Below are positions 16,433 through 27,000 of a stretch of 32,000 nt of DNA, piece by piece (positions within the stretch are counted from its first letter, which is position 1; each line of letters opens with the position of its first letter). The notes under the pieces are model-generated. The model saw only the letters and a program-made list of their open reading frames with translations. It was not told the origin of the DNA and did no database searches. This stretch comes from Hyphomicrobiales bacterium. Its GTDB lineage: Bacteria > Pseudomonadota > Alphaproteobacteria > Rhizobiales > Methyloligellaceae. The position numbers and the translations under genes were made by a program. The DNA is taken from contig QIGN01000126.1 in assembly GCA_003228955.1 (NCBI GenBank), forward strand, positions 6,873-38,872. The letters run 5' to 3'.

Positions 16433-17818
16433 TTAAGGCCCCGGCAAAACCAAGCGTGCGCTCAAGCCGCCATTCTTCGATTTTTCCAAGGAGAGCTTAC
16501 CCTTATACAGGTGTGCAAGCTCGGCCACGATCGACAGCCCCAAGCCTGAACCAGGCTTTGTTTCATCCAGCCGGCGGCCCCTTTTTATCACTGCAAGCCT
16601 TTCTTTTTTGGGTAATCCAGGACCGTCATCATCGACAGAAACTGTAAGAAAGCGCCCGCTTCGGGTATCTGCATCCGTTCCGAGCGATACCGTCAGAGCA
16701 ACATGCGATTTGGCCCATTTGCAGGCGTTATCAAGAAGATTTCCAACCATTTCTTCAAGATCTTGCTTCTCGCCTGCAAACGTGATGCCGTCAGGACATG
16801 AACTGAAAAACGTCAGCCCGCGCCCTTCATAGATGCGCTCCAGCGCTCGCACAACCGCTGCGACAACGGGTTTTACCTCCGTCTGACTTCCAGTAATGGC
16901 GGAACGCGCCGCCATACTGGCCCGGTTCAGATGGTGGTCGATCTGGCCCCGCATAAGTTCGGCCTGATCGCCGACTTTCTTGCCAAAACGCGTTCGGTTT
17001 TGAGCGGCCTCATTCGTAATTACGCTCAATGGTGTTTTCAGCGCGTGAGCCAGATTTCCGACATGAGTGCGAGCCCGCTCGACAATCTCGCGGTTGGACT
17101 GAATCAGGGCGTTGAGTTCACGTTGCAGCGGAACGATTTCAGTTGGAAGTTCGCCCTCCAGTTTCTCCGAGTCACCTGAGCGTATCGCCGAAAGTCCCTT
17201 GCCAATCGCGCGCAACGGCCTCAGGCCGAAACGCACCTGGAAATACGTGGCGAGCACGAGACCAAGCCCAAGAATTGTAAGAGCCACCACCAGCAGGATA
17301 CGGAATTCATCGATCACCATCTCGATCTCCGCGCTATCGCCGGCAACCGCAAAGGAAAACCTTGTCGTGCCCCTATTTGGGTCATTGAGCCTGATCTCTC
17401 GCTCCAGGACACGCAGGCGCTGTTTCTCCGGACCTTCGATATAGGAGCGACGTGTGAGGATGCCATCGGCCAAGGCCTTGATTTCTCTTGGCAAAACAAG
17501 ACGCTGGTCAAGGAGAGAGTCTGACGTTTGCAGGGATTGCACACTGGAACCGAGCGGAGTGATCTGCCAGTACCAGCCAGAAAAGGGGAGTGTGAAGAGC
17601 GGATCGCTCAGGGAGGGAGAGGGCGCTTGCGAACCGGGGCTGGCGGCAGCGAGATTGGCCACCAGATTGGTGAGGTAGACATTCAGACGGGCGTCGAAAC
17701 TGCGCTCGACCGCCCCGCGATAGACCGAGATGAGAACGATGGCGGTGATCGGCAGGGCAACCAATGCCCAGACCGACGCCGCGGCGAACAGACGCAATGC
17801 GAGGGAGTTAAGCCTCAT
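16433..17818 (-). CDS. feuQ: Sensor histidine kinase, FeuQ-like (2 TM, HAMP, HisKA, HATPase_c)
   Basis: H-box HVGNLAHALKTPLSVITNEA, N-box GNLLDNACKWA, G1 DDGPGL, G2 GSGLGLSIVAEL. Overlaps the response regulator stop. ATG 17818 (MRLNSLALRLF) preferred over TTG 17845. The symbol comes from family resemblance and synteny only. Confidence 0.8.
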   Translation of the reverse strand: MRLNSLALRLFAAASVWALVALPITAIVLISVYRGAVERSFDARLNVYLTNLVANLAAASPGSQAPSPSLSDPLFTLPFSGWYWQITPLGSSVQSLQTSDSLLDQRLVLPREIKALADGILTRRSYIEGPEKQRLRVLEREIRLNDPNRGTTRFSFAVAGDSAEIEMVIDEFRILLVVALTILGLGLVLATYFQVRFGLRPLRAIGKGLSAIRSGDSEKLEGELPTEIVPLQRELNALIQSNREIVERARTHVGNLAHALKTPLSVITNEAAQNRTRFGKKVGDQAELMRGQIDHHLNRASMAARSAITGSQTEVKPVVAAVVRALERIYEGRGLTFFSSCPDGITFAGEKQDLEEMVGNLLDNACKWAKSHVALTVSLGTDADTRSGRFLTVSVDDDGPGLPKKERLAVIKRGRRLDETKPGSGLGLSIVAELAHLYKGKLSLEKSKNGGLSARLVLPGP

Positions 17819-18479
17819 CCGGCGAATTTCCGAGGCAATATCCAAGTCCCCGCACCGTCTCTATCAGGTCGGCAGGTATTTTTTTGCGAAGTCGCCCGAC
17901 AAAGACTTCGATCGTATTCGAGTCGCGATCGAAGTCCTGATCGTAAAGATGCTCGACCAGTTCGGTCCGTGACACAACACGGCCCCGATGGTGCATGAGA
18001 TAGGCGAGCAGCCGGTATTCGTGAGAAGTGAGTTTGACTGGCGCGCCGCTGACTGTAACCCGGGAAGTTTTTGTATCCAGCCGCAGGGGGCCGACTTCCA
18101 TTTCGTTTTTCGCATGTCCCGATGAGCGGCGCAGCAGAGCCCTCACCCGCGCCAGAATTTCCTCCATGTGAAACGGCTTCGCGACATAGTCGTCCGCGCC
18201 TGCGTCAATGCCGGCGACCTTGTCGCTCCAGCGGTCCCGCGCGGTCAGGATCAGAACCGGCATTTTCCGGTTGTCCCGGCGCCAATTCTCCAGGACGCTG
18301 ATGCCATCTCTCTGTGGCAAACCAAGATCAAGGATCACCGCGTCATAGGGCTCGGTATCGCCAAGAAAATGCCCCTCCTCACCGTCAAAGGCAGTATCAA
18401 CGGCATATCCGGCATCGGACAACGCCGCAACCAGCTGTCTGTTCAGATCAGGATCGTCTTCGACAATCAATAGCCGCAC
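17808..18479 (-). CDS. feuP: OmpR-family response regulator, FeuP-like
   Basis: MRLLIVEDDPDLNRQL...GEEGHFLGDTEPYDAVILDLGLPQRDG...LTARDRWSDKVAGIDAGADDYVAKPFHMEEILARVRALLRR plus winged helix (LTSHEYRLLAYLMHH, TVRGLGYCL). Closely resembles rhizobial FeuP as I recall it. Confidence 0.85.
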   Translation of the reverse strand: MRLLIVEDDPDLNRQLVAALSDAGYAVDTAFDGEEGHFLGDTEPYDAVILDLGLPQRDGISVLENWRRDNRKMPVLILTARDRWSDKVAGIDAGADDYVAKPFHMEEILARVRALLRRSSGHAKNEMEVGPLRLDTKTSRVTVSGAPVKLTSHEYRLLAYLMHHRGRVVSRTELVEHLYDQDFDRDSNTIEVFVGRLRKKIPADLIETVRGLGYCLGNSPDEA

Positions 18480-18513: not shown

Positions 18514-18819
18514 CTAGTTGGCCGGAACCGTAATATTATTTACACTGCCGTTCGGTCTCACCACTGTCAGTTGATAGAACGGACCTGAACCTGACCGGCA
18601 AACCAGAAACGAGACCACTTTCCCGCCCGTGCGCGCTTCGACATTGTTCTTGACCATTGCCGCCGGACGCAAATTAAATCTGGCGAACAGCCCAAGCTTA
18701 CGGGCCTGGCCGAACGTCACGCACTGACGCTGCGCATGCACCGGTTCCACACTGCCGACAAGCAACAGCGGAATGCCCAGGGCCAGAAGGGCCCCGCAAA
18801 TAATGTTTCGACCGCGCAT
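18514..18819 (-). CDS. Small secreted PepSY-like protein, FeuN-like modulator candidate
   Basis: 101 aa with signal peptide ending VHA-QRQ. Lies directly upstream of feuP/feuQ (34-nt gap), as feuN does in Sinorhizobium. C-terminal GGKVVSF...YQLTVVRPNGSVNNITV beta pattern. Confidence 0.6.
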   Translation of the reverse strand: MRGRNIICGALLALGIPLLLVGSVEPVHAQRQCVTFGQARKLGLFARFNLRPAAMVKNNVEARTGGKVVSFLVCRSGSGPFYQLTVVRPNGSVNNITVPAN

Positions 18820-18847
18820 GTAATGCCTCGCAAGTGATCGTCAGCAT

Positions 18848-19252
18848 CTACCATACCGAAGCGCAAATGAACCACACATGAATAAGGTTGCCCTTACTCT
18901 CCCGCACCCAGGCCGCGCCCGCCTTCATCCACCGCAGATAACAGACAGGTTTCAGGCGGAGCCCCAGTTTACGTTTCGCTTCAGCGGCGCTCTCCTGGCA
19001 CTCATTACGGGATGCAAACACGAACTCCGTGATACCGATGAGCTTTTTGTTCCGCATCTCATAAACGACAATGACCCATACAGGACGCAGATCTACAGAA
19101 GGGTTGCTTTTCTGCTGAGTCACACCGGCACGCGGCTCTTCGGGAAGAGCCGCACGTGCTTTGCGCACGGCAATCACACCGCTCCACAGCGCGACGATAA
19201 CAGCCGCCACAAGCGACCATTTCACGGCTTCGCGGATATCATCTCCCGTCAT
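18848..19252 (-). CDS. Hypothetical membrane-anchored protein (last gene of the lysis cassette)
   Basis: Trimmed to ATG 19252, which overlaps the o-spanin stop (ATGA). One N-terminal TM (WSLVAAVIVALWSGVIAV). No recognisable domain. Confidence 0.45.
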   Translation of the reverse strand: MTGDDIREAVKWSLVAAVIVALWSGVIAVRKARAALPEEPRAGVTQQKSNPSVDLRPVWVIVVYEMRNKKLIGITEFVFASRNECQESAAEAKRKLGLRLKPVCYLRWMKAGAAWVRESKGNLIHVWFICASVW

Positions 19253-19485
19253 TTCTGATCCTCGCAGATTGCATCCCAGGCGGCGTTGTGTCCGCGCAAT
19301 TGCGCGATTGTCTCGCGTGTGTCGTTTTGAGCTGAGAAGGTGATGGGGGAAAATGCCACGCATGCGCCGCTAGTGCGCATCGCGGTTGTTCGGATCGTTG
19401 CGCAGCCCGTCAGGATCGTCGCGGACAGAACGGCGAGCGTCAGTGGCCTTACGCAACATTTTATGGTCCTGGGAAAGCTGTTCAT
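19249..19485 (-). CDS. Candidate o-spanin (Rz1-like outer-membrane lipoprotein)
   Basis: MNSFPRTIKCCVRPLTLAVLSATILTGC lipobox (LTGC). Short mature part with two further Cys. The gene begins in another frame inside the i-spanin candidate and extends past its end. Confidence 0.55.
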   Translation of the reverse strand: MNSFPRTIKCCVRPLTLAVLSATILTGCATIRTTAMRTSGACVAFSPITFSAQNDTRETIAQLRGHNAAWDAICEDQK

Positions 19486-19591
19486 TTTCAGCTTCCACCT
19501 GGCCAAGACGCCGTTGCCTGCGGCCGGCGAATAGCCTCATGATTGCCGCGAGAACCTGGATGACGGGGCCAAGAAGTTTCAGCCATGTCAT
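19370..19591 (-). CDS. Candidate i-spanin (Rz-like; N-terminal TM + charged coiled region)
   Basis: 73 aa with TM LKLLGPVIQVLAAIMRLF followed by RRQRRLGQVEAENEQLSQDHKMLRK. ATGA overlap with the preceding holin-like gene. Confidence 0.5.
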   Translation of the reverse strand: MTWLKLLGPVIQVLAAIMRLFAGRRQRRLGQVEAENEQLSQDHKMLRKATDARRSVRDDPDGLRNDPNNRDAH

Positions 19592-19776
19592 TCTTGATCA
19601 CTGGCTGAACCGCCGACTTCAGGCAGGAATATCGCCAGCACGGAAAATGCTCCGGCGACCGCGCCGAAGATGGTCATCCATTCAGCCTCGGTGAAACCCA
19701 TGAAGTGAAGGCTTGCAAGAAAACCTACAATTCCCGCATAGGTGCTTGGCTCCGCCAGTCTTTTCCAAATGTTCAT
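19588..19776 (-). CDS. Holin-like small membrane protein (two TM segments)
   Basis: Trimmed to ATG 19776 (MNIWKRLAEPSTYAG), 1 nt after the endolysin stop. TM segments YAGIVGFLASLHFMGF and WMTIFGAVAGAFSVLAIFL. Confidence 0.55.
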   Translation of the reverse strand: MNIWKRLAEPSTYAGIVGFLASLHFMGFTEAEWMTIFGAVAGAFSVLAIFLPEVGGSASDQE

Positions 19777-19777
19777 T

Positions 19778-20308
19778 TTAGCTTCTCCTTTCCATTTCCA
19801 GGGCATCCGCGAGGACACCGTTCACACGGGCCGTCCAGCCGCGGCCAAATGTCTTCCAGGTCCGCAAACGCTGGAGAAAACTCCTGCGCCTCACGATGAG
19901 ACGCCGGATGATTGTCTTGGGATGATGGCGCGCGACGGCCGCAAGGGTCATGGGACCGACAATGCCGTCAGCCCGGGCCCCGGCAACGCGCTGAAGTGCC
20001 TTCGCAGCACGGGCAACGCCTGAATTCACCGCGAAGTCGAAAACGGCATAATCGACGCCCGAAGGGAGCTTGTCCCCCAGGACGCCATCCCAGTAGCGGG
20101 CGCGATAAATTCGTGCCACTTCACTCCGCTTCAGCGCCCGCACTTCGGATTTCGGTAATCTCCGCCACGGCCTGACACCCCGCCATGCGGCCAGGGTCCT
20201 GCGGGTGATGCCGAGATTTGTGGCACCGCCTGGATCAAGAGGGTGGTCCACATACCCGCCTTCATGTGCGAGCACCAGGGCCAGACCTGCCCTGAAGTTT
20301 TTTTTCAT
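19778..20308 (-). CDS. Endolysin: glycoside hydrolase family 108 domain + PG_binding_3 domain
   Basis: LVLAHEGGYVDHPLDPGGATNLGIT (GH108 signature with catalytic Glu) and C-terminal DYAVFDFAVNSG...LQRVAGARADGIVGPMTLAA. Start is ATG 20308, preceded by GGAGAAAAAGAA. Confidence 0.85.
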   Translation of the reverse strand: MKKNFRAGLALVLAHEGGYVDHPLDPGGATNLGITRRTLAAWRGVRPWRRLPKSEVRALKRSEVARIYRARYWDGVLGDKLPSGVDYAVFDFAVNSGVARAAKALQRVAGARADGIVGPMTLAAVARHHPKTIIRRLIVRRRSFLQRLRTWKTFGRGWTARVNGVLADALEMERRS

Positions 20309-20320
20309 TTCTTTTTCTCC

Positions 20321-20350
20321 AATAAAAAAGCCGCCTCGGCTCGAGGCGGC
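20321..20350 (-). terminator. Rho-independent terminator (minus-strand sense) 13 nt upstream of the endolysin start
   Basis: Perfect 9-bp GC-rich stem GCCGCCTCG / CGAGGCGGC (20330-20338 / 20342-20350) with a 3-nt loop. On the minus strand it is followed by TTTTTTATT (complement of 20321-20329). Confidence 0.7.
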
Positions 20351-20444
20351 GTTCGTCAATGAACCACTAGTTTTCTCAGATCGTCAGGGCTTGGGTCCGG
20401 CCCGCGGTCGTTTCACCAATAGCCAAAGCCGGCCCACGCCCGGT
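20343..20444. repeat. Direct repeat copy R1 (orphan 3' fragment of the small membrane-protein gene plus its downstream sequence)
   Basis: Aligns to 21712-21813 at a constant offset of 1369 nt without indels; 89/102 identical by hand alignment. On the minus strand it still reads GVGRLWLLVKRPRAGPKP-stop. Confidence 0.85.
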
Positions 20445-20537
20445 ATGGCCTCCCTTTCCAGATTCAAACTTTTGAAGTAAACGACAGTCCGGTGCACTGC
20501 TGTTTAGACCTCTCAGATCGCGGGCAATACAATCCGG

Positions 20538-21713
20538 ATGTCTTATTTCATTAAGCGAGCTGCTTATTTCGGATACAGACTTCAGTCCGTTGAAAACCGC
20601 TTATCCGAACTGGAGAAATATAACGCCGCCAGTCTCCCAAGTTCCGGAAATCCTGTTGCTCTTGATCTACCAAAAAAACCTCTTGTCGGGGCCTGGCAAC
20701 GTCTCGACCATTTTGCAAATTACCACCGTGCCAGAGCTCTTCTGAGTCTTGAAAATCTCTATGTCGGCTTTGATGCTGGGCGCCGCGGCAGGGGCTCTCT
20801 TATGCGCTATGATGGCGACTGGCACGAGCTGTTCAGTCGTCAGGGCATAACCGAGATTGTGACCCTCTGCCGCCATAACGGTGAAATCTGGTTTGGCGCA
20901 ACCTCATTACGCGACGGAGCGTCGCTCTGGCGAGGCGATGGCCAGCACTTCGAAATGGCGGGGCAATGGCCCAGGTTTTTCTCCGTTGCCGCTCTTGCCA
21001 GCTTTGACGGAAAACTTTTCTGCTCCCTTGTGCCTTCAACGAAATCCGAAACGGCTGCGCCAGTTCTCATCTTTGACGGGCAATGGAACGATGTATTGAA
21101 CGATCATCCCTACCAATGCATTTATGATCTTCACCCTCACAAGAAACACCTCTGTGGCGGAACCGTCGGCGCCGGATGGTTCGGCGGGCATGTGATCGAT
21201 ATTCTTTCCGGTCGGGTTATCGGTGGCGATGGAAACAACGGGAGCTGGAACCATCAATCTACCATACTTCGCCTTTGCTCACTCGGAGATACCCTTATTG
21301 CAACGGGCAATCGTGAACCCGCAGCAGCAGGAAATCACTCCAACATTTGGTCATATGCCGGCAAAGCGTGGAAACCGGTCCCCCTGCCACCACGGGGGTT
21401 TCAAGGACTTTACAGTTTCAATGCTGTGCATCCTTTCAGGGATCATTTGATAGTCGGCTGTGGCGGGCGTCCAGCTGGGCAAGCTGCGATCTTGTGCTTG
21501 TCGAGGGATGGCTGGACGCAAATCGGTGGAACAGGCCTCAATAACTCATGGAGCCCGAACGTTTATCGCCGCATGAATGCGCCTCTCGCCAACGGCTCGC
21601 AGAGCGATTACGTTTACAATTTCTGCGAACATGACGGCGCTTTGATCGCGGGCTTTGGCGCGTCACCTGGTTGCGGTCAGGTTTGGCGGTTTAAACCGGA
21701 CTCCACGGCGTGA
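20538..21713 (+). CDS. Hypothetical protein with Kelch-like / beta-propeller-like repeats (moron-type insertion). The only plus-strand gene in the phage-like region
   Basis: 391-aa ORF. About seven ~45-aa units with recurring patterns (YDGDWHEL, GEIWFG, SLWRGDGQHF, FDGKLFC, IFDGQWNDV, IWSYAGKAWKPV, LSRDGWTQIGG, GQVWRF). No signal peptide or TM. Visibly lower GC than its surroundings. Confidence 0.65.
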   Translation: MSYFIKRAAYFGYRLQSVENRLSELEKYNAASLPSSGNPVALDLPKKPLVGAWQRLDHFANYHRARALLSLENLYVGFDAGRRGRGSLMRYDGDWHELFSRQGITEIVTLCRHNGEIWFGATSLRDGASLWRGDGQHFEMAGQWPRFFSVAALASFDGKLFCSLVPSTKSETAAPVLIFDGQWNDVLNDHPYQCIYDLHPHKKHLCGGTVGAGWFGGHVIDILSGRVIGGDGNNGSWNHQSTILRLCSLGDTLIATGNREPAAAGNHSNIWSYAGKAWKPVPLPPRGFQGLYSFNAVHPFRDHLIVGCGGRPAGQAAILCLSRDGWTQIGGTGLNNSWSPNVYRRMNAPLANGSQSDYVYNFCEHDGALIAGFGASPGCGQVWRFKPDSTA

Positions 21714-21813
21714 AGCGGCGTTCGTCAATGAGCCGCTAGTTTCCTCAGATCGTCAGGGCTTGGGCCCGGCCCGCAATCGCTTCACGAATAACCAAAGCCG
21801 GCCGAAGCCCAGT
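21712..21813. repeat. Direct repeat copy R2 (3' end of the intact 63-aa ORF plus 41 nt downstream)
   Basis: See R1. The same peptide EAAFVNEPLV.SDRQGLGPAR.RFTN.QSRP appears in two plus-strand shadow ORFs (20205.. and 21655..). Confidence 0.85.
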
Positions 21814-21944
21814 GCAACGCCGCATAAAAGCATTATTGAAGTCAGAAACTGGTTCAGACTGCCAAGCCACGATGCCCACGCCGGAGAGGCAATGAGCGTT
21901 GCGGCAATTGCAGAGTCGATTTTCCCGGTTGTTGTGTGTTCCAT
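21753..21944 (-). CDS. Small membrane protein, class II holin-like (two TM segments, basic C-terminus)
   Basis: 63 aa with IAATLIASPAWASWLGSL and FLTSIMLLCGVALGFGRLWLF, then KRLRAGPKP. Its C-terminal peptide is conserved in the R1 fragment with both synonymous and non-synonymous changes. The SD is weak. Confidence 0.45.
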   Translation of the reverse strand: MEHTTTGKIDSAIAATLIASPAWASWLGSLNQFLTSIMLLCGVALGFGRLWLFVKRLRAGPKP

Positions 21945-21981
21945 AATTTTGAATGGCTATCCATGTTTTCTGTCATTCTGC

Positions 21982-22008
21982 GGTGCCCAAAACCGGGCAC
22001 CATTTTAT
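21982..22008 (+). terminator. Candidate plus-strand intrinsic terminator
   Basis: Stem GGTGCCC / GGGCACC (21982-21988 / 21995-22001) with a 6-nt loop, followed on the plus strand by ATTTTAT. No U-tract in the minus-strand sense. Confidence 0.4.
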
Positions 22009-22095
22009 GCCGCAAGATCGATCCTTTAAGATACCGCCGATGCCAAGCAGCATCTCAAGGGGGATTGTTATCTGTGTCATGGCGCGTTCCCTGCT

Positions 22096-22620
22096 CTAGT
22101 ATTCCACGCCGAACGACGCGCATTCGCGGTTGGTCTTGGCGCTCAGCACATTGCCCGTGCCCGAAACATCGCCGGAGTTGAACCGCTCCCAGATATTGGC
22201 GGCGGAGACGTAATCCATTGTCTGGATGTCGCCGTGATAGAGGGCGGGCAGGAAGTTGCCGCTTGCGGGAATGGTGTAATTCGCGGCGAGGTTGAACAAT
22301 TCCTCGCCGGTCCCGCCGTGATTGATACCGGTCTGCGTGTGCATCACGTCGAAGGAGTTGGCGCCCTGATATTGCAGAATGTGCATCGTGATGCCGGAGC
22401 GGACCTCGTTCATGTTGATGATCCATTTGAACACCGTCGACCCGTTGGTCAGATATCCCGCCGGCGACAGCACATTCGTGGCGGGCACGAAGACGGCGTT
22501 CGCCGCACCGAAGACACCATTGTTATCCGCTGGCGCGGCCATCTTCTGCTGCACGCCGGTGGCCCCGCCGCCGCCCGCCGCCCGCCGCCGCGCGGCGCAA
22601 AGCATCGCGCCCAAACTCAT
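22096..22620 (-). CDS. Hypothetical protein (possible distal fibre or receptor-binding component)
   Basis: Track ORF 22096..23088 trimmed to ATG 22620, which overlaps the upstream stop (ATGA). The 156 upstream codons overlap another, better ORF and are Arg/His-rich junk. No recognisable domain. Confidence 0.55.
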   Translation of the reverse strand: MSLGAMLCAARRRAAGGGGATGVQQKMAAPADNNGVFGAANAVFVPATNVLSPAGYLTNGSTVFKWIINMNEVRSGITMHILQYQGANSFDVMHTQTGINHGGTGEELFNLAANYTIPASGNFLPALYHGDIQTMDYVSAANIWERFNSGDVSGTGNVLSAKTNRECASFGVEY

Positions 22621-23057
22621 TGCAGCGCCCGCACGGTCATGGATTGCTGGCCGCCTATATTGGTGACGCAGACCTCGAATTTGTCGCCATTTGTGGTGGT
22701 GAATTTTGCGGTTTCTGCTTCGTCGAAGCCCGAGGCGGTAATCGCCCCGGCACTTGCGTTGTTGGTGGCGATGCAGATGTAACCGCCTTCCTCGGTCGGC
22801 GCGGCCCATGTGAAGATACCGCCATTGGTCAGTGTCTTGACCGCTCCTGTGGAGGGTTCCGGCGTCGTGGTGCCGGAGGATACGGTGCCGAGGGCCTGCG
22901 GAACCGACTTGCCCGAATTTATGGGCTGCTTTTCTGTCTCCAATTCGTCCAAAGCCGTTTTTGCATTGGTCGCGGATAGCCCGGAGGAGGCATTGTCGTA
23001 GGTAACGCTGGCGGCAGTGGTCCCCGCCAAAGCATCCGATGATACAAATCGAGCCAT
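22617..23057 (-). CDS. Hypothetical tail-fibre-like protein
   Basis: Trimmed to ATG 23057 (TAATG overlap with the upstream stop). The N-terminal VTYDNASSGLSATNAKTALDELE motif resembles fibre or spike N-termini. Ser/Thr/Gly-rich middle region. Confidence 0.55.
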   Translation of the reverse strand: MARFVSSDALAGTTAASVTYDNASSGLSATNAKTALDELETEKQPINSGKSVPQALGTVSSGTTTPEPSTGAVKTLTNGGIFTWAAPTEEGGYICIATNNASAGAITASGFDEAETAKFTTTNGDKFEVCVTNIGGQQSMTVRALQ

Positions 23058-23362
23058 TAGGCTGTCTCCTCTGGTCCATAGACGACAACTGAGACGCCGG
23101 CTGCGCTCGCCCGCGCGTAAAGTTTTTCGCCTGCGGTCATCCATATTTGCGTGCGTTCAAGAACGCCTGCTGCACCGAGAGTGACATCAAATTCAATCCA
23201 GTCCTTCACCGCAGGCAGTGCGCCATCCGTCACCGCCAGCCGCACGTCGGCTGATTGCGTGCGGGCGCAAAAGGCGACATTCACGCTGGCCTTTCTGCCC
23301 GTTGGAACTACATAGAGTTCCGTATCCGTTGCCGCCGCGAGGTCGGCCGCTCCAAGTGGCAT
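23057..23362 (-). CDS. Hypothetical small protein (beta-rich), fibre module
   Basis: AAGGAG lies 8 nt upstream of ATG 23362 (MPLGAADL); the ATG at 23368 is too close to the SD. No recognisable domain. Confidence 0.55.
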   Translation of the reverse strand: MPLGAADLAAATDTELYVVPTGRKASVNVAFCARTQSADVRLAVTDGALPAVKDWIEFDVTLGAAGVLERTQIWMTAGEKLYARASAAGVSVVVYGPEETA

Positions 23363-23380
23363 ATGCATCTCTCCTTAGTT

Positions 23381-24088
23381 TTAGTTGGCTGCCCAAAAAA
23401 GCATGGCGCCAAGTCCTGCGGACCCACCGCCGCTGATGGTTGTATTGGGGAATGTGACGCCGCCCGTGGTCCGGTCGATCACGATGGCTTCGCTCCAGTT
23501 GACGCCGTCGGCGCTTACCTTGAAATGATAGTCGTCATCGCCGGTCAGACCCATCTCGGCTCTCCCGGCGGCCCCGGTTTGGAACAGCAGGCTGGCGGTG
23601 TCTGTGGCAGCACTCTTGTTGATCTTTAACTGATGCCCGGCGCCTTCGTGATTGAGCAGAACAGCCGGACTTGAAACGGCCAGCCTGTTTGTCAGATCGG
23701 GCGTGGAATTGATGCCAAGGGTATCCAGATTGCTGATGGCCCCCATGGCCGCCAGCGCATCCACCCAGGAAGATCCGTCCCAGGTAATAAGTGAATCTTC
23801 GTCGTCGACCCAGCATAGCCACCCGGCTTTAGGTGTATAATATGCCCATGCGCCGTCCTGCCATGCGGCAATGCTAGTATCCTGGCCAAGCCAGACCCCG
23901 CTTGCGGCGCTTGCAACAAGATAGCGATCACCCTCTAAGGGACCCGCTGGCGGAACACTCAGATCACGGTCGATCACGGACAGTTGGACCAGTGTGTCCA
24001 GTCCGCGAAGGGCCTCATTGTGGGTCACATGCTTTTGTGCCTGGGCCGCCTCGATGAATGGCAGGCCGAGATTGGCCGAGTTAGACAT
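23381..24088 (-). CDS. DUF2793 domain protein (GTA/phage fibre-associated)
   Basis: MSNSANLGLPFIEAAQAQKHVTHNEALRGLDTLVQLSV...GDRYLVA...AWQDGAWAYYTPKAGW matches the DUF2793 pattern commonly found after g15. ATG 24088 overlaps the g15 stop. Confidence 0.8.
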   Translation of the reverse strand: MSNSANLGLPFIEAAQAQKHVTHNEALRGLDTLVQLSVIDRDLSVPPAGPLEGDRYLVASAASGVWLGQDTSIAAWQDGAWAYYTPKAGWLCWVDDEDSLITWDGSSWVDALAAMGAISNLDTLGINSTPDLTNRLAVSSPAVLLNHEGAGHQLKINKSAATDTASLLFQTGAAGRAEMGLTGDDDYHFKVSADGVNWSEAIVIDRTTGGVTFPNTTISGGGSAGLGAMLFWAAN

Positions 24089-27000
24089 GAATTTGCGCTT
24101 CCCTGCGTTGTCCGCGCCCATATGCGGCGCTCAGCTGATAGACATTGATGTTGTAAGTGGACTGGGGTGTGCCCCAGTCGGCAATCTGGTCTGCCTCGCT
24201 ATAGGTCACGCTCATCACCTCGCTGGCGAGCGTACGTTTCACTAACGCACCATTCAGAATGTCGACCACATAGCGCTCGGTATCTTCTGCCAGAGGAACT
24301 TCCGACGTTTCCCAGCTGTCTCCGCCAAGCCGCGTGCGGCGCACCCACGAAATCACGACATCGTTGCCGGCGGGCGCGGCCCGGATGTGAACCGGGCTCA
24401 ATGGACGCAAACCAAGGCCGGAGAAGGCGCGAACCTGGTCCTGATAGGAGGCATGGCCGATATCCCGGCTGATGGGCCCGTATTTCCAGTTGAATTCGAG
24501 GGCGATCTCATCGGCCGTCATATCCACCTGGGCAACGGCTGAATCGAGAAACACAAAGCGTGCGCCGGCGGGAACAGGATCAGCCATCGCTTGCTCGGTG
24601 CCGGCCTGTCCGCGCAGCAGGAAGGACAGCTCATATGTTGATGGCGCAACCAGCGTGGCATCGCGAAACTGGAACACCTCCCAGTCGCTAGCCGGATTTT
24701 CGATGGCCGCCGTGTTTGCACCGCCGAGCAGGGCCAGTTCGGTCACCGACTGAAGGTCGCCATTGTCGAGGCGCACCCGGCAGATATTCGCGCGGTCAAA
24801 CCGGCTGGTGGGTCCCGATGAGAAATCCAACTCGCTCACTCCGAGCGTTGCGGGCGCGGTCGCCAGCGCCTTGACGACGAAGCCGGTGCTTTCCGGGGAC
24901 CGGTAGAAGGCAACCGCGCCGGGCCACGGCGACTGGTACGCGGACACATACCCGGCATGGGCTTCTTCATCGCCGCGCAGCAATGGCAGGTCCATGAATG
25001 TCGCCAGGGCCTGGCCGTAGACTGCAGGCGTGGCTTGTGGCGCATTGCGCAGCGGCGTGCGCAGCGCGGTAAAGACTTCCGGTTCGATGGAGCGTGCTTC
25101 GAGTTCCTTGTCTACTCCTTCCCTCATCTCAATGATTCGCAACGGCAAGGTCTGATTTCCAACCTGAAGCGAAACCAGATCCGTCGGCTCCAGCGCCATG
25201 CGGCTTGGCGGCAAGGCAAAACTGGCCCGTTGCCGCGCGGTCCAGGCTTCCTGCAGCCAGGATTCGGCCATGGCCTGGGCCTGGGCCTGGGCCATCACAA
25301 CCGGCACGCTGGCGGTCGATACCCGTTCGGAGCGCACCGCGAGACGGCGCGCCTCGACAGCCGCCTGCCGGTATTGCGTATTGCCGTCGATATAGGTGAG
25401 CTTCGCCGAAAGCGGCAGTTCAGTTTCCTGACCGCGCGTTATTTCAAACAACTCGCGCTCTTTGCCGCGATCAACCAGATCGTCGGCGACAAGTTGCGCG
25501 GCCGTCCCGCCGGCGCCGCGATGCCTGAACTGAATGAGGCCGCCGGACTCGTAGCTGTCGAAAAAGAAGGCCAGCTCAAGGCTCTGCAGCGCCTCGCGGG
25601 CGGACATGATGCGATCAATCACATAGCCGTCGAGATGCCCGGTGAGCTGCGCCGCCGAATGGCGCGCGAAGCCATAATCGTTCAGAATTTGCGCAACGAC
25701 AGCCGGCAGCGGCCCGCCCGCGGCCCGGCCCGTCAGCCAGTGTCCGAACTCCCAGTTGCCCCCGTCCGACCAGACATCGAGCGCCAGGGGAAAGGCCGGA
25801 TAGGGCCGCGCATCCCATGTGTAAACATAGAGGCGGGTAATATCGACCATCTCGCCGCCAAAGATCGACGATGCCGGGTTCGAGCCGGCGACATAATCAA
25901 TATGAGCGGGATCGAAAAAGTCATAGAAAGACTGAATGTAGCGCCGCTGAATGAGATCATCGCGGGTGGTTCTGGAAAAGTAAGGCGTCTGCGACTCCGA
26001 ACTTTTCGGGTCGATAAATACATTCGGCTGATTGGATCCCTTGTCGACCGCCGGGCAGCCAAGCTCGGTGAACCAGATGGGTTTCGATTCCGGCACCCAG
26101 GGCGTCGGCGTACCCGATTCTACACCGCCTGGCCGGTTGAAATGCTGGTTCTGCCACCAGGAACGGATATCCTTGAAGCGGAACACCCACGGCTTGGCGT
26201 GAGCTCCGTCGGTGATTGGGGACCGCGTCTGAGAGGTACGATCCGCATCACTGGCGTAGAACCAGTCATAGCCCTCACCGCCGAAAATATTTCCTTTAAG
26301 ATAATCGAAATCATGGATAGAGGAGGCGCCGGCGAGCCGATCCGAATGAGCCTCGCCGTCGCGCCAGTCGGACAACGGCCAGTAAACGTCAATGGCGATG
26401 GCGTCGATATCCGGCGATGACCATAAGGGGTCCAGATGGAAGGTGACATCGCCTGAGCCATCGCCAGGCTGATGGCCGAAATATTCCGACCAGTCGGCCG
26501 CGTAAGTGACTTTGGCGCCGGGGCCGAGTATGGATTTTACATCGCTGGCGAGCGCGACAAGCGCATCCACGAACGGGTAGCTCACAGCCCCGTCCCTCAC
26601 CTGCGTGAGGCCGCGCAATTCCGAGCCAATGACAAAGGCATCGACACCACCGGCCGCCTGACACAGATGCGCATAGTGCAGCACCATACGGCGCAGACTC
26701 CATTCGGCCGGGCCCGAATAACTCACGCTCTGCCCGGTGACGGCAAAGTCACCCGGCACCGCTGTCCCGACCAGATTTGAGACCTGGACTGCGGCGGCAG
26801 CCGTTTTATCGGGCGAACCGGGCTGACCCGCTGCCGGGTCCACCGTGATACGGCCCCGCCAGGGGTAGACCGGCTGGCTTGCCGCACCGGTATAGGGGTC
26901 GATCAGGGCGTTGCCATCCGGCACATCCATCATCACGAAAGGCGTAAACGTCACCGCAACACCGCGCGTATTCAGGTCCTGTATAGCCGAGACGATGGAG

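Follow-up and report, generated by a model that had tools for sequence, protein, structure and literature searches.

An opposite-strand propeller gene joined into the lysis cassette of a putative RcGTA-like cluster, probably by illegitimate recombination

About 1.26 kb of foreign DNA (20445 to ~21702) is joined into the lysis cassette in the lineage of the window, the 32-kb stretch of DNA analysed here. The join site lies exactly between the terminator hairpin of a 63-aa gene and codon 44 of the same gene, and the insert is bracketed by two copies of that gene's 3' region, R1 and R2. R2 completes a working holin-like gene, and R1 is a decaying 3' stub that supplies the terminator and the ribosome-binding-site context of the endolysin gene. 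We put at roughly 60% the probability that this DNA, with its opposite-strand propeller gene (hereafter the cargo gene), entered the apparently RcGTA-like lysis cassette via illegitimate recombination, in a version slightly favoured to have been anchored by homology. The features of the region, with coordinates in the window, are as follows.

19778-20308, minus strand: GH108 endolysin with a PG_binding_3 domain, 176 aa (PF05838, 8e-29; PF09374; PHROG 315 endolysin, 3e-51).
20324-20350, minus strand: intrinsic terminator from the terminator scan, with a GC-rich stem of 9 bp (hairpin at 20330-20350) and a T-run after it; fold -20.9 kcal/mol, z -4.2.
20334-20444, no strand assigned: R1, the orphan copy, with 19 codons plus stop, a 35-nt spacer and most of the hairpin, delimited by three-way alignment with R2 and the related locus L083.
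20445-20537, plus strand: unique stretch of 93 nt preceding the cargo gene and richer in AT (GC 0.50).
20538-21713, plus strand: cargo gene, 391 aa, predicted N-terminal helix followed by a seven-bladed beta-propeller.
21703-21813, no strand assigned: R2, the copy completing the intact 63-aa gene, together with the spacer and, beneath the cargo stop codon, a hairpin that has decayed; fold -10.4 kcal/mol, z -0.2.
21753-21944, minus strand: 63-aa holin-like membrane protein, so called from its hydropathy and its position upstream of terminator and endolysin in every relative.
21982-22001, plus strand: candidate cargo terminator from the terminator scan, a hairpin followed by AUUUUAU; fold -15.5 kcal/mol, z -3.3.
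22096-22641, minus strand: last gene of the fibre module (tail-tip slot), ~181 aa, a different gene in each relative.

Self-BLASTN of the 32-kb window gave a single non-trivial match, so that R1/R2 is its only internal repeat. The match aligned 20334-20444 with 21703-21813 over 111 nt with no gaps (95 identical positions and 16 mismatches, 85.6%; E 1.2e-30), and a repeat finder extended the direct repeat to 20323-20444 and 21692-21813 (122 nt, 83%, spacing 1369). The self-alignment thus recovered the repeat that an earlier note on this DNA had described, including its 102-nt core (20343-20444 and 21712-21813, offset 1369) with 89/102 identical positions. The description of R2 as the last 19 codons plus stop of the 63-aa ORF, with 41 nt downstream, was likewise correct, as was that of R1 as an orphan copy whose reading frame ends in GVGRLWLLVKRPRAGPKP and a stop. 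In R1 this frame (20384-20443, minus strand) is preceded by stop codons, and the only ORF there is a mechanical one of 37 aa starting at GTG. The edge of the repeat, on the other hand, had been placed inside the right arm of the hairpin; homology in fact spans nearly the whole hairpin, to about 20334/21703, and R2 matches the hairpins of R1 and L083 at ~10-11 of 16 further positions. Only R1 kept a working terminator, as had been proposed, with the folding energies listed above. Both junctions can be read to within a few bases: J1 lies at about 21699-21703 and J2 between 20444 and 20445.

A discrete insert flanked by a direct repeat is also what a transposon or insertion sequence would leave, the repeat then being its target-site duplication. 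Target-site duplications of such elements are short (2-14 bp) and perfect. The present repeat measures 111 nt and is just 86% identical, the insert ends carry no terminal inverted repeats, and the sole gene encodes a beta-propeller with no transposase domain. The lack of inverted repeats and of a transposase effectively refutes this reading, to which we attach virtually no probability, and the earlier note was right to set it aside.

Related loci were compared at the same site. The 63-aa protein alone as query matched only itself, and the relatives were reached by a three-sequence profile. All eight related loci found (L083/L168, L167, L169, L163, L164, L165, L166 and L170), which carry five distinct holin alleles, were without the cargo and contained the repeat sequence once; the 63-aa gene is followed there by a ~35-nt spacer, the terminator and the GH108 endolysin. 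This is the empty-site arrangement that had been predicted (63-aa gene, ~35-40 nt, terminator, endolysin), and two copies without the intervening gene, which would have spoken against an insertion, were seen in 0/8. The hairpin and T-run stand at the same place in L083, L163, L164, L165 and L166. Because the 391-aa gene and the second copy are both absent from 8/8 relatives, the window contains a lineage-specific insertion of ~1.26 kb, in line with the claim of the earlier note. The site had been placed between the fibre and lysis modules; it in fact falls within the lysis module, with the holin-like gene on one side and the endolysin gene as its downstream neighbour.

Searches of mobile-element collections were negative. 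BLASTN of 19200-22700 against annotated phages and plasmids gave no useful match, and the exact 21-mer of the repeat had 0 matches in IMG/VR or metagenome contigs, from both of which the source contig is itself absent. Endolysin relatives in IMG/VR comprised 80 loci at no more than 61% identity, none with the 63-aa gene or the cargo, and IMG/VR scans with the holin alignment, the cargo alignment and the tip protein returned no relatives.

The insertion is known from one assembly, the source of the window being a single metagenome contig, and exact protein matches were limited to P0001 and P0007, both on one 38.9-kb JGI contig. The longest identical run between R1 and R2 (20375-20395) is 21 nt, a typical minimum k-mer length, and a mis-join of two co-occurring strains at shared k-mers might have produced a false duplication. 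Such a mis-join yields one hybrid copy, however, not two copies homologous on both sides together with two novel junctions. The cargo ORF also runs in frame across J1 to its stop, and the contig outside the insertion is colinear with L083. The chance of an assembly artefact therefore seems very slight.

The cargo is the one real gene between the copies, as had been noted; other ORFs of at least 20 aa there are mechanical, and the gene lies on the strand opposite to its neighbours. Its product aligned over its full length with five homologues (36-50% identity), its AF2 model had a pTM of 0.82 and a pLDDT of 80, and a fold search returned generic propellers only (WD40, Kelch, EPTP). It had no match in Pfam, PHROG, NCBIfam or PADLOC, and distant homologues gave only sub-threshold Rax2 propeller matches in Pfam. 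A look-up of JGI's 303-aa call of the cargo gave no record. Six close homologues were found among 5.8 billion proteins; the family has about 2,400 detectable relatives, none found in IMG/VR, and no family model. The nearest homologue with usable context (49% identical) lies among chromosomal housekeeping genes. The GC content of the cargo gene is 0.537 and its GC3 0.536, compared with a GC3 of 0.61-0.82 in neighbouring genes (endolysin 0.66, g15 0.71, tip gene 0.82). The low GC3, the rarity of the family and its absence from IMG/VR, and the homologue among housekeeping genes all agree with the foreign look ascribed to the cargo. The invariant residues F385 and P387 end at 21698, and the final residues DSTA with the stop (four codons plus stop) are encoded by the former terminator hairpin. 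Since the cargo ORF is conserved up to P387 and then continues into hairpin sequence, its native 3' end was cut off.

These features bear on whether the insert could be the remnant of an integrative element, that is, an integrase-bearing element that entered the 3' end of the holin gene with a substitute 3' end, so that R1 would be attR and R2 attL, and later deletions left the propeller gene. The topology fits, with the target kept intact through an element-borne 3' copy and the native 3' end displaced as an imperfect repeat, and the 21-nt identical run could conceivably have served as a crossover core. Homology nevertheless continues on both sides of that run, the 1.26 kb consists of the cargo gene and 93 nt with no integrase, excisionase or further ORF, the cargo ORF is fused straight to the hairpin, and the cargo homologues occur in non-mobile contexts. 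An att-site origin was rejected on the ground that no integrase or other recombinase lies between the copies, and the broader remnant scenario is very unlikely.

The 63-aa protein has two hydrophobic segments (~10-27 and 31-54, one weak and one strong) and a basic tail, KRLRAGPKP; it had no match in Pfam, PHROG, NCBIfam or PADLOC. Its orthologues in L083 and L163-L166 share 60-68% amino acid identity with it. It is small, has membrane segment(s) and a charged C-terminus, and is adjacent to the endolysin in all relatives; its size, hydropathy and position suggest that it is a holin. A second small two-segment membrane protein, of 62 aa, is encoded after the endolysin in the window and could be the true holin instead. 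Compared with L083, the 63-aa gene has a dN/dS of 0.17 and a dS of 1.25, against a dS of 0.24-0.53 in neighbouring genes.

The intrinsic terminator occupies the interval between the 3' end of the holin-like gene and the ribosome-binding site of the endolysin gene. After the insertion, the holin-like gene would thus be without a terminator of its own, and the holin-like and cargo transcripts are probably now convergent and overlapping. A promoter-like sequence, TAGACC-17-TACAAT, is found at 20505-20533, but the two such sequences of the region are no excess over shuffles (mean 1.5). This candidate ends 5 nt before the cargo ATG, and in the absence of a Shine-Dalgarno sequence the cargo mRNA may be leaderless. 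The cargo ORF itself ends in the non-folding decayed hairpin, and the nearest plus-strand hairpin to it is the one beyond the holin-like gene (21982-22001), 37 nt beyond the holin start codon and 270 nt downstream of the ORF; to reach it, a cargo transcript would cross the holin-like gene antisense. This hairpin has no alignable counterpart in the intergenic regions of the relatives, and Rfam gave no match over 19500-22700 at E<=1. The cargo promoter and the plus-strand terminator are candidates by consensus match, to be taken as leads.

The host element appears, from its sequence, to be a vertically inherited RcGTA-like tail cluster to which fibre and lysis genes are joined. Its tail genes stand in conserved order (Phage_tail_2, GTA-gp10, DUF2460, Gp84_N+BR0599, NlpC/P60, GTA_TIM+Phage-tail_3+Rcc01698_C), and the GTA assignment is made from these genes, the window ending inside the tail module before the head and regulatory parts. 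On the flank that was captured, L083 and L164-L169 share the host genes of the window (response regulator, histidine kinase, ccm), and dS values against L083 are alike for host and element genes (0.45, 0.50, 0.40). The shared flank and similar dS indicate vertical inheritance at a fixed chromosomal site. The endolysin gene is 89.6% identical to that of L083 over its first 386 nt, and the two are sisters with 97.8% bootstrap. Decay is visible in some relatives: L083 has lost its fibre genes by deletion, and L166 has a truncated g15.

The larger mosaic feature of the locus is the tail-tip gene slot together with the divergent holin allele just downstream of it. The window at 21969-22616 has no DNA homology to L165 or L166, and the tip-slot proteins of the three are mutually unrelated; the slot holds a LamG-domain gene in L170 and yet another gene in L163. 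The tip protein of the window had no match in Pfam, PHROG, NCBIfam or PADLOC. Because this adjoining upstream gene differs in every relative, the locus is taken as an exchange hot spot. The holin branch is long (25:6 and 26:4, p<=0.0006), and the endolysin is clock-like.

The relationship of R1 and R2 bears on how the duplication arose. They are each other's closest relatives with 99.8% bootstrap, share the long branch and evolve at equal relative rates, and they differ by 12-14% overall (JC 0.135 in the core, 0.08 in the spacer). R1 is thus ruled out as an L083-like resident copy beside a foreign R2, since it lies on the same long branch as R2. A crossover or conversion tract inside the repeat was also considered; the differences (8/40 in the initial part, 4/57 thereafter) are insufficient for it and not significantly different (Fisher p=0.067). 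Polarisation of the alignment against five outgroups assigned two Leu-to-Pro and one Phe-to-Leu change to R1, the former as expected because an unconstrained fragment should decay. The earlier note had proposed recombination with a related element that brought its own holin fragment. Recombination fits, but the phylogeny that it had called for made R1 and R2 exclusive sisters with equal rates and gave no support for a two-parent origin, and no donor was found.

The same sisterhood and equal rates are predicted by a single event in situ, in which a break or stalled replication at the hairpin led to the capture of a linear piece of foreign DNA, and repair by a staggered break with fill-in, or by template switching, duplicated 111 nt of the target; the copies would have been identical at first and have since diverged by 12-14%. 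Set against the neutral divergence between the window and L083 (dS 0.40-0.50), that of the copies amounts to roughly one quarter to one third, which is consistent with an L083 without insert. A stall or break would be plausible at one of the junctions, situated at the foot of a strong hairpin, and an unseen donor becomes unnecessary. In Acinetobacter transformation, however, homology-anchored integration outnumbers the unanchored double illegitimate kind by orders of magnitude, and a perfect 111-bp direct repeat around a neutral insert would invite RecA-mediated deletion. In addition, R2, which is 60% coding and under selection, has about 6-7 derived changes in the polarised alignment and the unconstrained R1 has 3-4, the opposite of expectation, although this difference is not significant. 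We regard duplication in situ as possible, if somewhat doubtful.

Illegitimate recombination, rather than transposition or site-specific integration, is accordingly the probable cause. Both an anchored exchange with a close relative and a duplication in situ would fit, the anchored exchange being slightly favoured. It would combine one-sided homologous with one-sided illegitimate exchange, that is, homology-facilitated illegitimate recombination. A linear fragment would have come from a closely related element and carried tip gene, holin, spacer and hairpin, the hairpin being already fused to a 3'-truncated chromosomal gene. Its left side would have recombined homologously with the resident cluster, and its right end would have been joined by an illegitimate event within the resident holin gene, whose 3' end was thereby moved downstream, so that 111 nt of target (19 codons, stop, spacer and hairpin) came to flank the insert as a direct repeat. 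The observed order is that expected of a displacement, with the intact gene, the imported DNA and a start-less orphan of the same 3' end. Against the anchored exchange, no donor element is known, and duplication in situ equally predicts the sisterhood of R1 and R2.

An unlikely but more far-reaching variant is that the GTA imported host DNA into its own cluster. A packaged fragment of ~4 kb, in which the decaying cluster of a close relative was fused to the propeller gene, would have recombined by one-sided homology at the tip/holin hot spot, and the cargo would then act as an antisense brake on the lysis gene by transcription from the leaderless promoter to the hairpin at 21982-22001. If so, antisense cargo transcription would give the host extra control over GTA release.

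The insertion is ordinary, documented phage mosaic evolution and not a new type of element; the process is well documented and current understanding is unchanged. It offers a clean case of gene gain by illegitimate recombination with eight empty-site relatives as controls, and its cargo belongs to a protein family without a family model. GTA-like clusters are usually regarded as conservative. For their evolution, the locus suggests that the endolysin and the tail core keep pace with the host but that recombination drives turnover at the tail-tip slot and in the holin-like gene, and the convergence of the cargo gene with a terminator-less holin-like gene may affect lysis timing.

Among known systems, prophages 21 and e14 occupy icd, with att sites in which the 3' end of this protein gene is duplicated. 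As there, an imperfect repeat of a gene 3' end brackets the insert and the target gene is intact; unlike there, no integrase is present, and a 1.26-kb insert with one unrelated gene is joined at a random fusion junction within an ORF. The moron concept comes from the temperate phages HK97 and HK022 (PMC3594210), and the earlier note had suggested a moron-type acquisition. This holds in part: one genome has the extra gene and eight related loci lack it at the corresponding position, and the gene differs from its neighbours in base composition and stands on the opposite strand within a late-gene region. It departs from a moron in having no terminator of its own, with its truncated 3' end fused to the host terminator hairpin, from which the last codons derive, and in having a promoter that is a candidate by consensus match. 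The host, moreover, appears to be a GTA-like cluster passed on vertically rather than a free temperate phage, and the 111-nt flanking duplication is outside the definition of a moron.

Closer in structure are Rhs, CDI and T6SS effector-immunity loci, where displacement has left orphaned 3' ends that have been attributed to homology-facilitated illegitimate recombination (PMC5361080; PMC3240628). Here too, an intact gene with a putatively new 3' end is followed by imported DNA and the start-less earlier 3' end, a conserved 5' region is available as a possible homologous anchor, and cassettes have been exchanged repeatedly at the locus. In contrast to those systems, the orphan consists of 19 codons and non-coding DNA instead of a toxin tip with an immunity gene, it is single and not part of an array, and where those loci have different toxin types, the two 3' ends here are nearly identical alleles. 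The element itself is best compared with the RcGTA-type clusters of Alphaproteobacteria (PMC5026251; PMC10883770), with which it shares a tail module of the g9-g15 type, including a GTA_TIM/Rcc01698_C protein, a DUF2793 fibre protein, and a fixed chromosomal position with divergence alongside the host. It differs in that the DUF2793 fibre genes and the endolysin/spanin cassette are contiguous with the cluster, whereas in R. capsulatus they lie at separate loci (PMC5026251).

Aligned with itself by BLASTN, the whole 32-kb window gave one non-trivial match, between an orphan copy at 20334-20444 (R1) and a second copy at 21703-21813 (R2), which is ungapped over 111 nt with 85.6% identity (E 1.2e-30) and reproduces the repeat that the earlier note had aligned by hand. 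A repeat search of 19000-23000 found a single long direct-repeat family, 20323-20444 against 21692-21813 (spacing 1369, 122 nt, 83%). Within the 102 nt originally compared, 89 positions are identical (89/102), and R2 there contains the final 19 codons and stop of a 63-aa ORF (21753-21944, minus strand) and 41 nt downstream, as had been read. The longest identical run between the copies is 21 nt (20375-20395). R1 reads ...GVGRLWLLVKRPRAGPKP followed by a stop, and in-frame stops precede its frame. Nearly all features in this part of the window lie on the minus strand:

~31654 down to 24081, RcGTA-like tail module (Phage_tail_2, GTA-gp10, DUF2460, Gp84_N/BR0599, NlpC/P60, 1330-aa GTA_TIM/Phage-tail_3/Rcc01698_C protein)
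24121 down to 22096, DUF2793 fibre gene and three more fibre-module genes
21753-21944, minus strand, 63-aa holin-like gene
20445 to ~21702, insert, with a 391-aa ORF on the plus strand (20538-21713)
20324-20444, R1 and terminator
19778-20308, GH108 endolysin
19249-19818, second small membrane protein, i-spanin-like protein and Rz-like lipoprotein (PHROG 1275)
16433-18479, host two-component system

The second small membrane protein (19588-19818, minus strand; 58-62 aa as called in relatives) directly follows the endolysin and has two hydrophobic segments; the true holin could be this protein or the 63-aa one. The RcGTA-like tail genes continue without a break into DUF2793 fibre genes and a complete lysis cassette (endolysin, small membrane proteins, spanin-like pair) at 18514-24121, a stretch that borders on host genes, whereas in Rhodobacter capsulatus the fibre and lysis genes are scattered, with the DUF2793 gene and the endolysin-holin pair at separate loci (PMC5026251).

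The insert is absent from relatives. Scanning genomes with the endolysin brought up L083 (Bacterium BMS3Bbin10), whose nucleotide sequence matches that of the window at 85-87% identity across more than 11 kb, host genes included, and a profile of the holin-like protein found L163, L164, L165, L166, L167, L169 and L170; eight related loci were counted, with five distinct holin alleles (L168 is on the same contig as L083). All eight have the 63-aa gene, a spacer of ~35 nt, a hairpin with T-run, a ribosome-binding site and the endolysin, which is the empty site predicted in the earlier note; each has a single repeat copy, and neither the 391-aa gene nor a second copy was found in any of them. The host genes after the lysis cassette are identical in type wherever the relatives' contigs extend far enough, and dS between the window and L083 is alike for the host's response-regulator gene (0.45) and element genes (g15, 0.50; endolysin, 0.40). 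The element thus passes vertically along with its host, as GTA clusters do.

Some members of this cluster family have lost genes. The whole fibre module is gone from the closest relative (L083 2338-2511; also L167 5832-5996; window equivalent ~21990-24015), where the DUF2793 5' end survives as a 54-57-aa stub, joined 21 nt ahead of the holin-like gene's upstream region; this cluster is probably decaying or yields particles without fibres. In L166 (2448-3854), the g15-like gene encodes only 468 aa (Rcc01698_C only) directly after the tail assembly chaperone genes, and the tape-measure and g12-g14 equivalents are seemingly missing, a further sign of degeneration.

The R1-side junction is sharp (20444|20445), inside codon 44 of the holin frame, and the R2-side junction lies at ~21699-21703. 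F385 and P387 of the 391-aa protein are invariant across its family, and this conserved part ends at 21698; the residual DSTA and stop are read from the former hairpin. The imported fragment thus lacked the native stop codon and terminator of the gene, which marks the join as arbitrary and illegitimate, not a packaged cassette. The insert showed no inverted repeats and no gene for a transposase or an integrase; transposon insertion was rejected for lack of the first two and a pair of att sites for lack of the third.

Five homologues (36-50% identity) align with the 391-aa ORF over its full length, so it is a real gene and begins at 20538 rather than at the later position of the JGI call. Its AlphaFold model comprises an N-terminal helix and a 7-bladed beta-propeller (pTM 0.82), for which a fold search gave only generic matches (WD40, Kelch and EPTP propellers). 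It matched no Pfam, PHROG, NCBIfam or PADLOC model; a profile search retrieved ~2,400 relatives, giant multi-repeat proteins among them, and none in IMG/VR. The family, which no Pfam or NCBIfam model covers, includes proteins of 2,800-5,700 aa in which as many as 20 stretches match (P0013, P0018, P0023, P0024 and others), some fused to TPR or bacterial Ig/cadherin domains. The sole homologue with long context lies among pantothenate, SIS-domain and helicase genes, and a second shares its 3.4-kb contig with a single uncharacterised gene. GC3 of the gene is 0.54 against 0.61-0.82 in neighbouring genes. We read it as a cellular gene captured by the element. GC is 0.49-0.56 over 20445-22095 (this gene and the holin-like gene, with the intergenic stretch that precedes the latter) and 0.59-0.62 in the flanks; holin-like genes are lower in GC than endolysins in all relatives too.

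The repeat copies were placed in a neighbour-joining tree of seven sequences (97-nt core). R1 and R2 were sisters with 99.8% bootstrap, 87.6% identical to each other and 63-75% to the others, and relative-rate tests showed no difference between them (5:5, 4:7, 4:5, 6:5). This exclusive sisterhood with equal rates favours an in-situ event, in which one insertion duplicated its target and the copies diverged afterwards. Such an event fits, requires no unseen donor, and agrees with an insert-free L083, since R1-R2 divergence (JC 0.135) is about 1/4 to 1/3 of the neutral window-L083 distance. Polarised against five outgroups, the R1-specific changes in the 97-nt alignment include two Leu-to-Pro substitutions, and R1 is therefore decaying under either duplication model. 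A mechanically called 37-aa GTG ORF (20384-20497, minus strand) fuses 18 novel residues to 19 holin-derived R1 residues; because it has no complete transmembrane segment and carries these two changes, a functional peptide is probably not expressed from it. R1-R2 differences number 8 in the first 40 nt and 4 in the other 57, which is not significant (p=0.067).

Both copies are long-branched relative to L083 (e.g. 17:3 and 19:5, outgroup L163), and the remainder of the window holin gene is on the same long branch (25:6 and 26:4, p<=0.0006; dS 1.25), whereas the endolysin is clock-like and sister to that of L083 (97.8% bootstrap, 89.6% identity). Identity to L083 is ~66% over R1 and steps to 87-92% from the terminator onward. 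The last fibre-module gene, directly upstream of the holin-like gene, is unrelated among the window (22096-22641), L165 (1201-1785) and L166 (5322-5897); the slot holds a LamG-domain gene in L170 (215-922) and yet another gene in L163 (1-297). The position has the look of an interchangeable slot for receptor-binding tip proteins within a cluster that is otherwise inherited vertically. From the unrelated tip genes and the contrast between holin and endolysin, the insertion lies at the right-hand margin of a slot in which tail-tip cassettes, together with holin alleles, are exchanged repeatedly. The slot proteins of the window and L165 have only a short N-terminal motif in common, LG.(M/L)LCAARRR.

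The insertion is lineage-specific, with two illegitimate junctions and a 111-nt target duplication. For the origin of the duplication two models fit, and we lean slightly to anchored exchange over the in-situ event. A linear fragment from a close relative, in which the truncated propeller gene had already been joined to holin, spacer and hairpin, would have recombined homologously on the left and joined illegitimately on the right within the resident holin, displacing the resident 3' end. The exchange evident at the locus speaks for this, and in transformation anchored integration far outnumbers the unanchored kind. Repeats diverged from the outset, with so short a longest identical run, would also resist deletion. 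The mosaic recombination proposed in the earlier note is in essence this exchange; it fits the locus, but in-situ duplication fits too, R1 and R2 being sisters.

The hairpin of R1 folds strongly (-20.9 kcal/mol, z -4.2) and that of R2 is decayed, without a fold (-10.4 kcal/mol, z -0.2). That only R1 keeps a working terminator had been noted correctly; one detail is corrected here, in that the homology spans nearly the whole hairpin and does not end in its right arm. The motif GTTCATTGAC, which holds a -35-like TTGAC, lies just upstream of the hairpin (20354-20364, 21723-21733, L083 ~2726-2736); R1, R2, L083, L163 and L165 each keep it with no more than one mismatch, whereas it is not conserved in L164 or L166. 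We infer that the holin-like gene now lacks a terminator of its own and that its sense transcription must cross the propeller gene antisense for 1.3 kb before the R1 terminator. The ATG of the propeller gene lacks a Shine-Dalgarno sequence and stands 5 nt after the end of a promoter-like site. A plus-strand hairpin at 21982-22001 (GGUGCCC...GGGCACC, U-rich tail; -15.5 kcal/mol, z -3.3), 37 nt past the holin start codon and with no alignable counterpart in relatives, could terminate the propeller gene's transcript. Neither signal is statistically distinct from shuffled sequence; if both are real, this transcript would be antisense over the whole holin-like gene, which we offer as a lead only.

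The locus represents a known process, well resolved, and is mildly interesting for GTA and phage evolution rather than surprising. It resembles a moron in its presence/absence, deviating composition and opposite strand (PMC3594210), but the propeller gene has no terminator of its own and the host element is a GTA-like cluster. Displacement of a resident 3' end has been proposed for the orphaned 3' ends found at Rhs and T6SS loci (PMC5361080; PMC3240628), and the topology of the window locus matches it.
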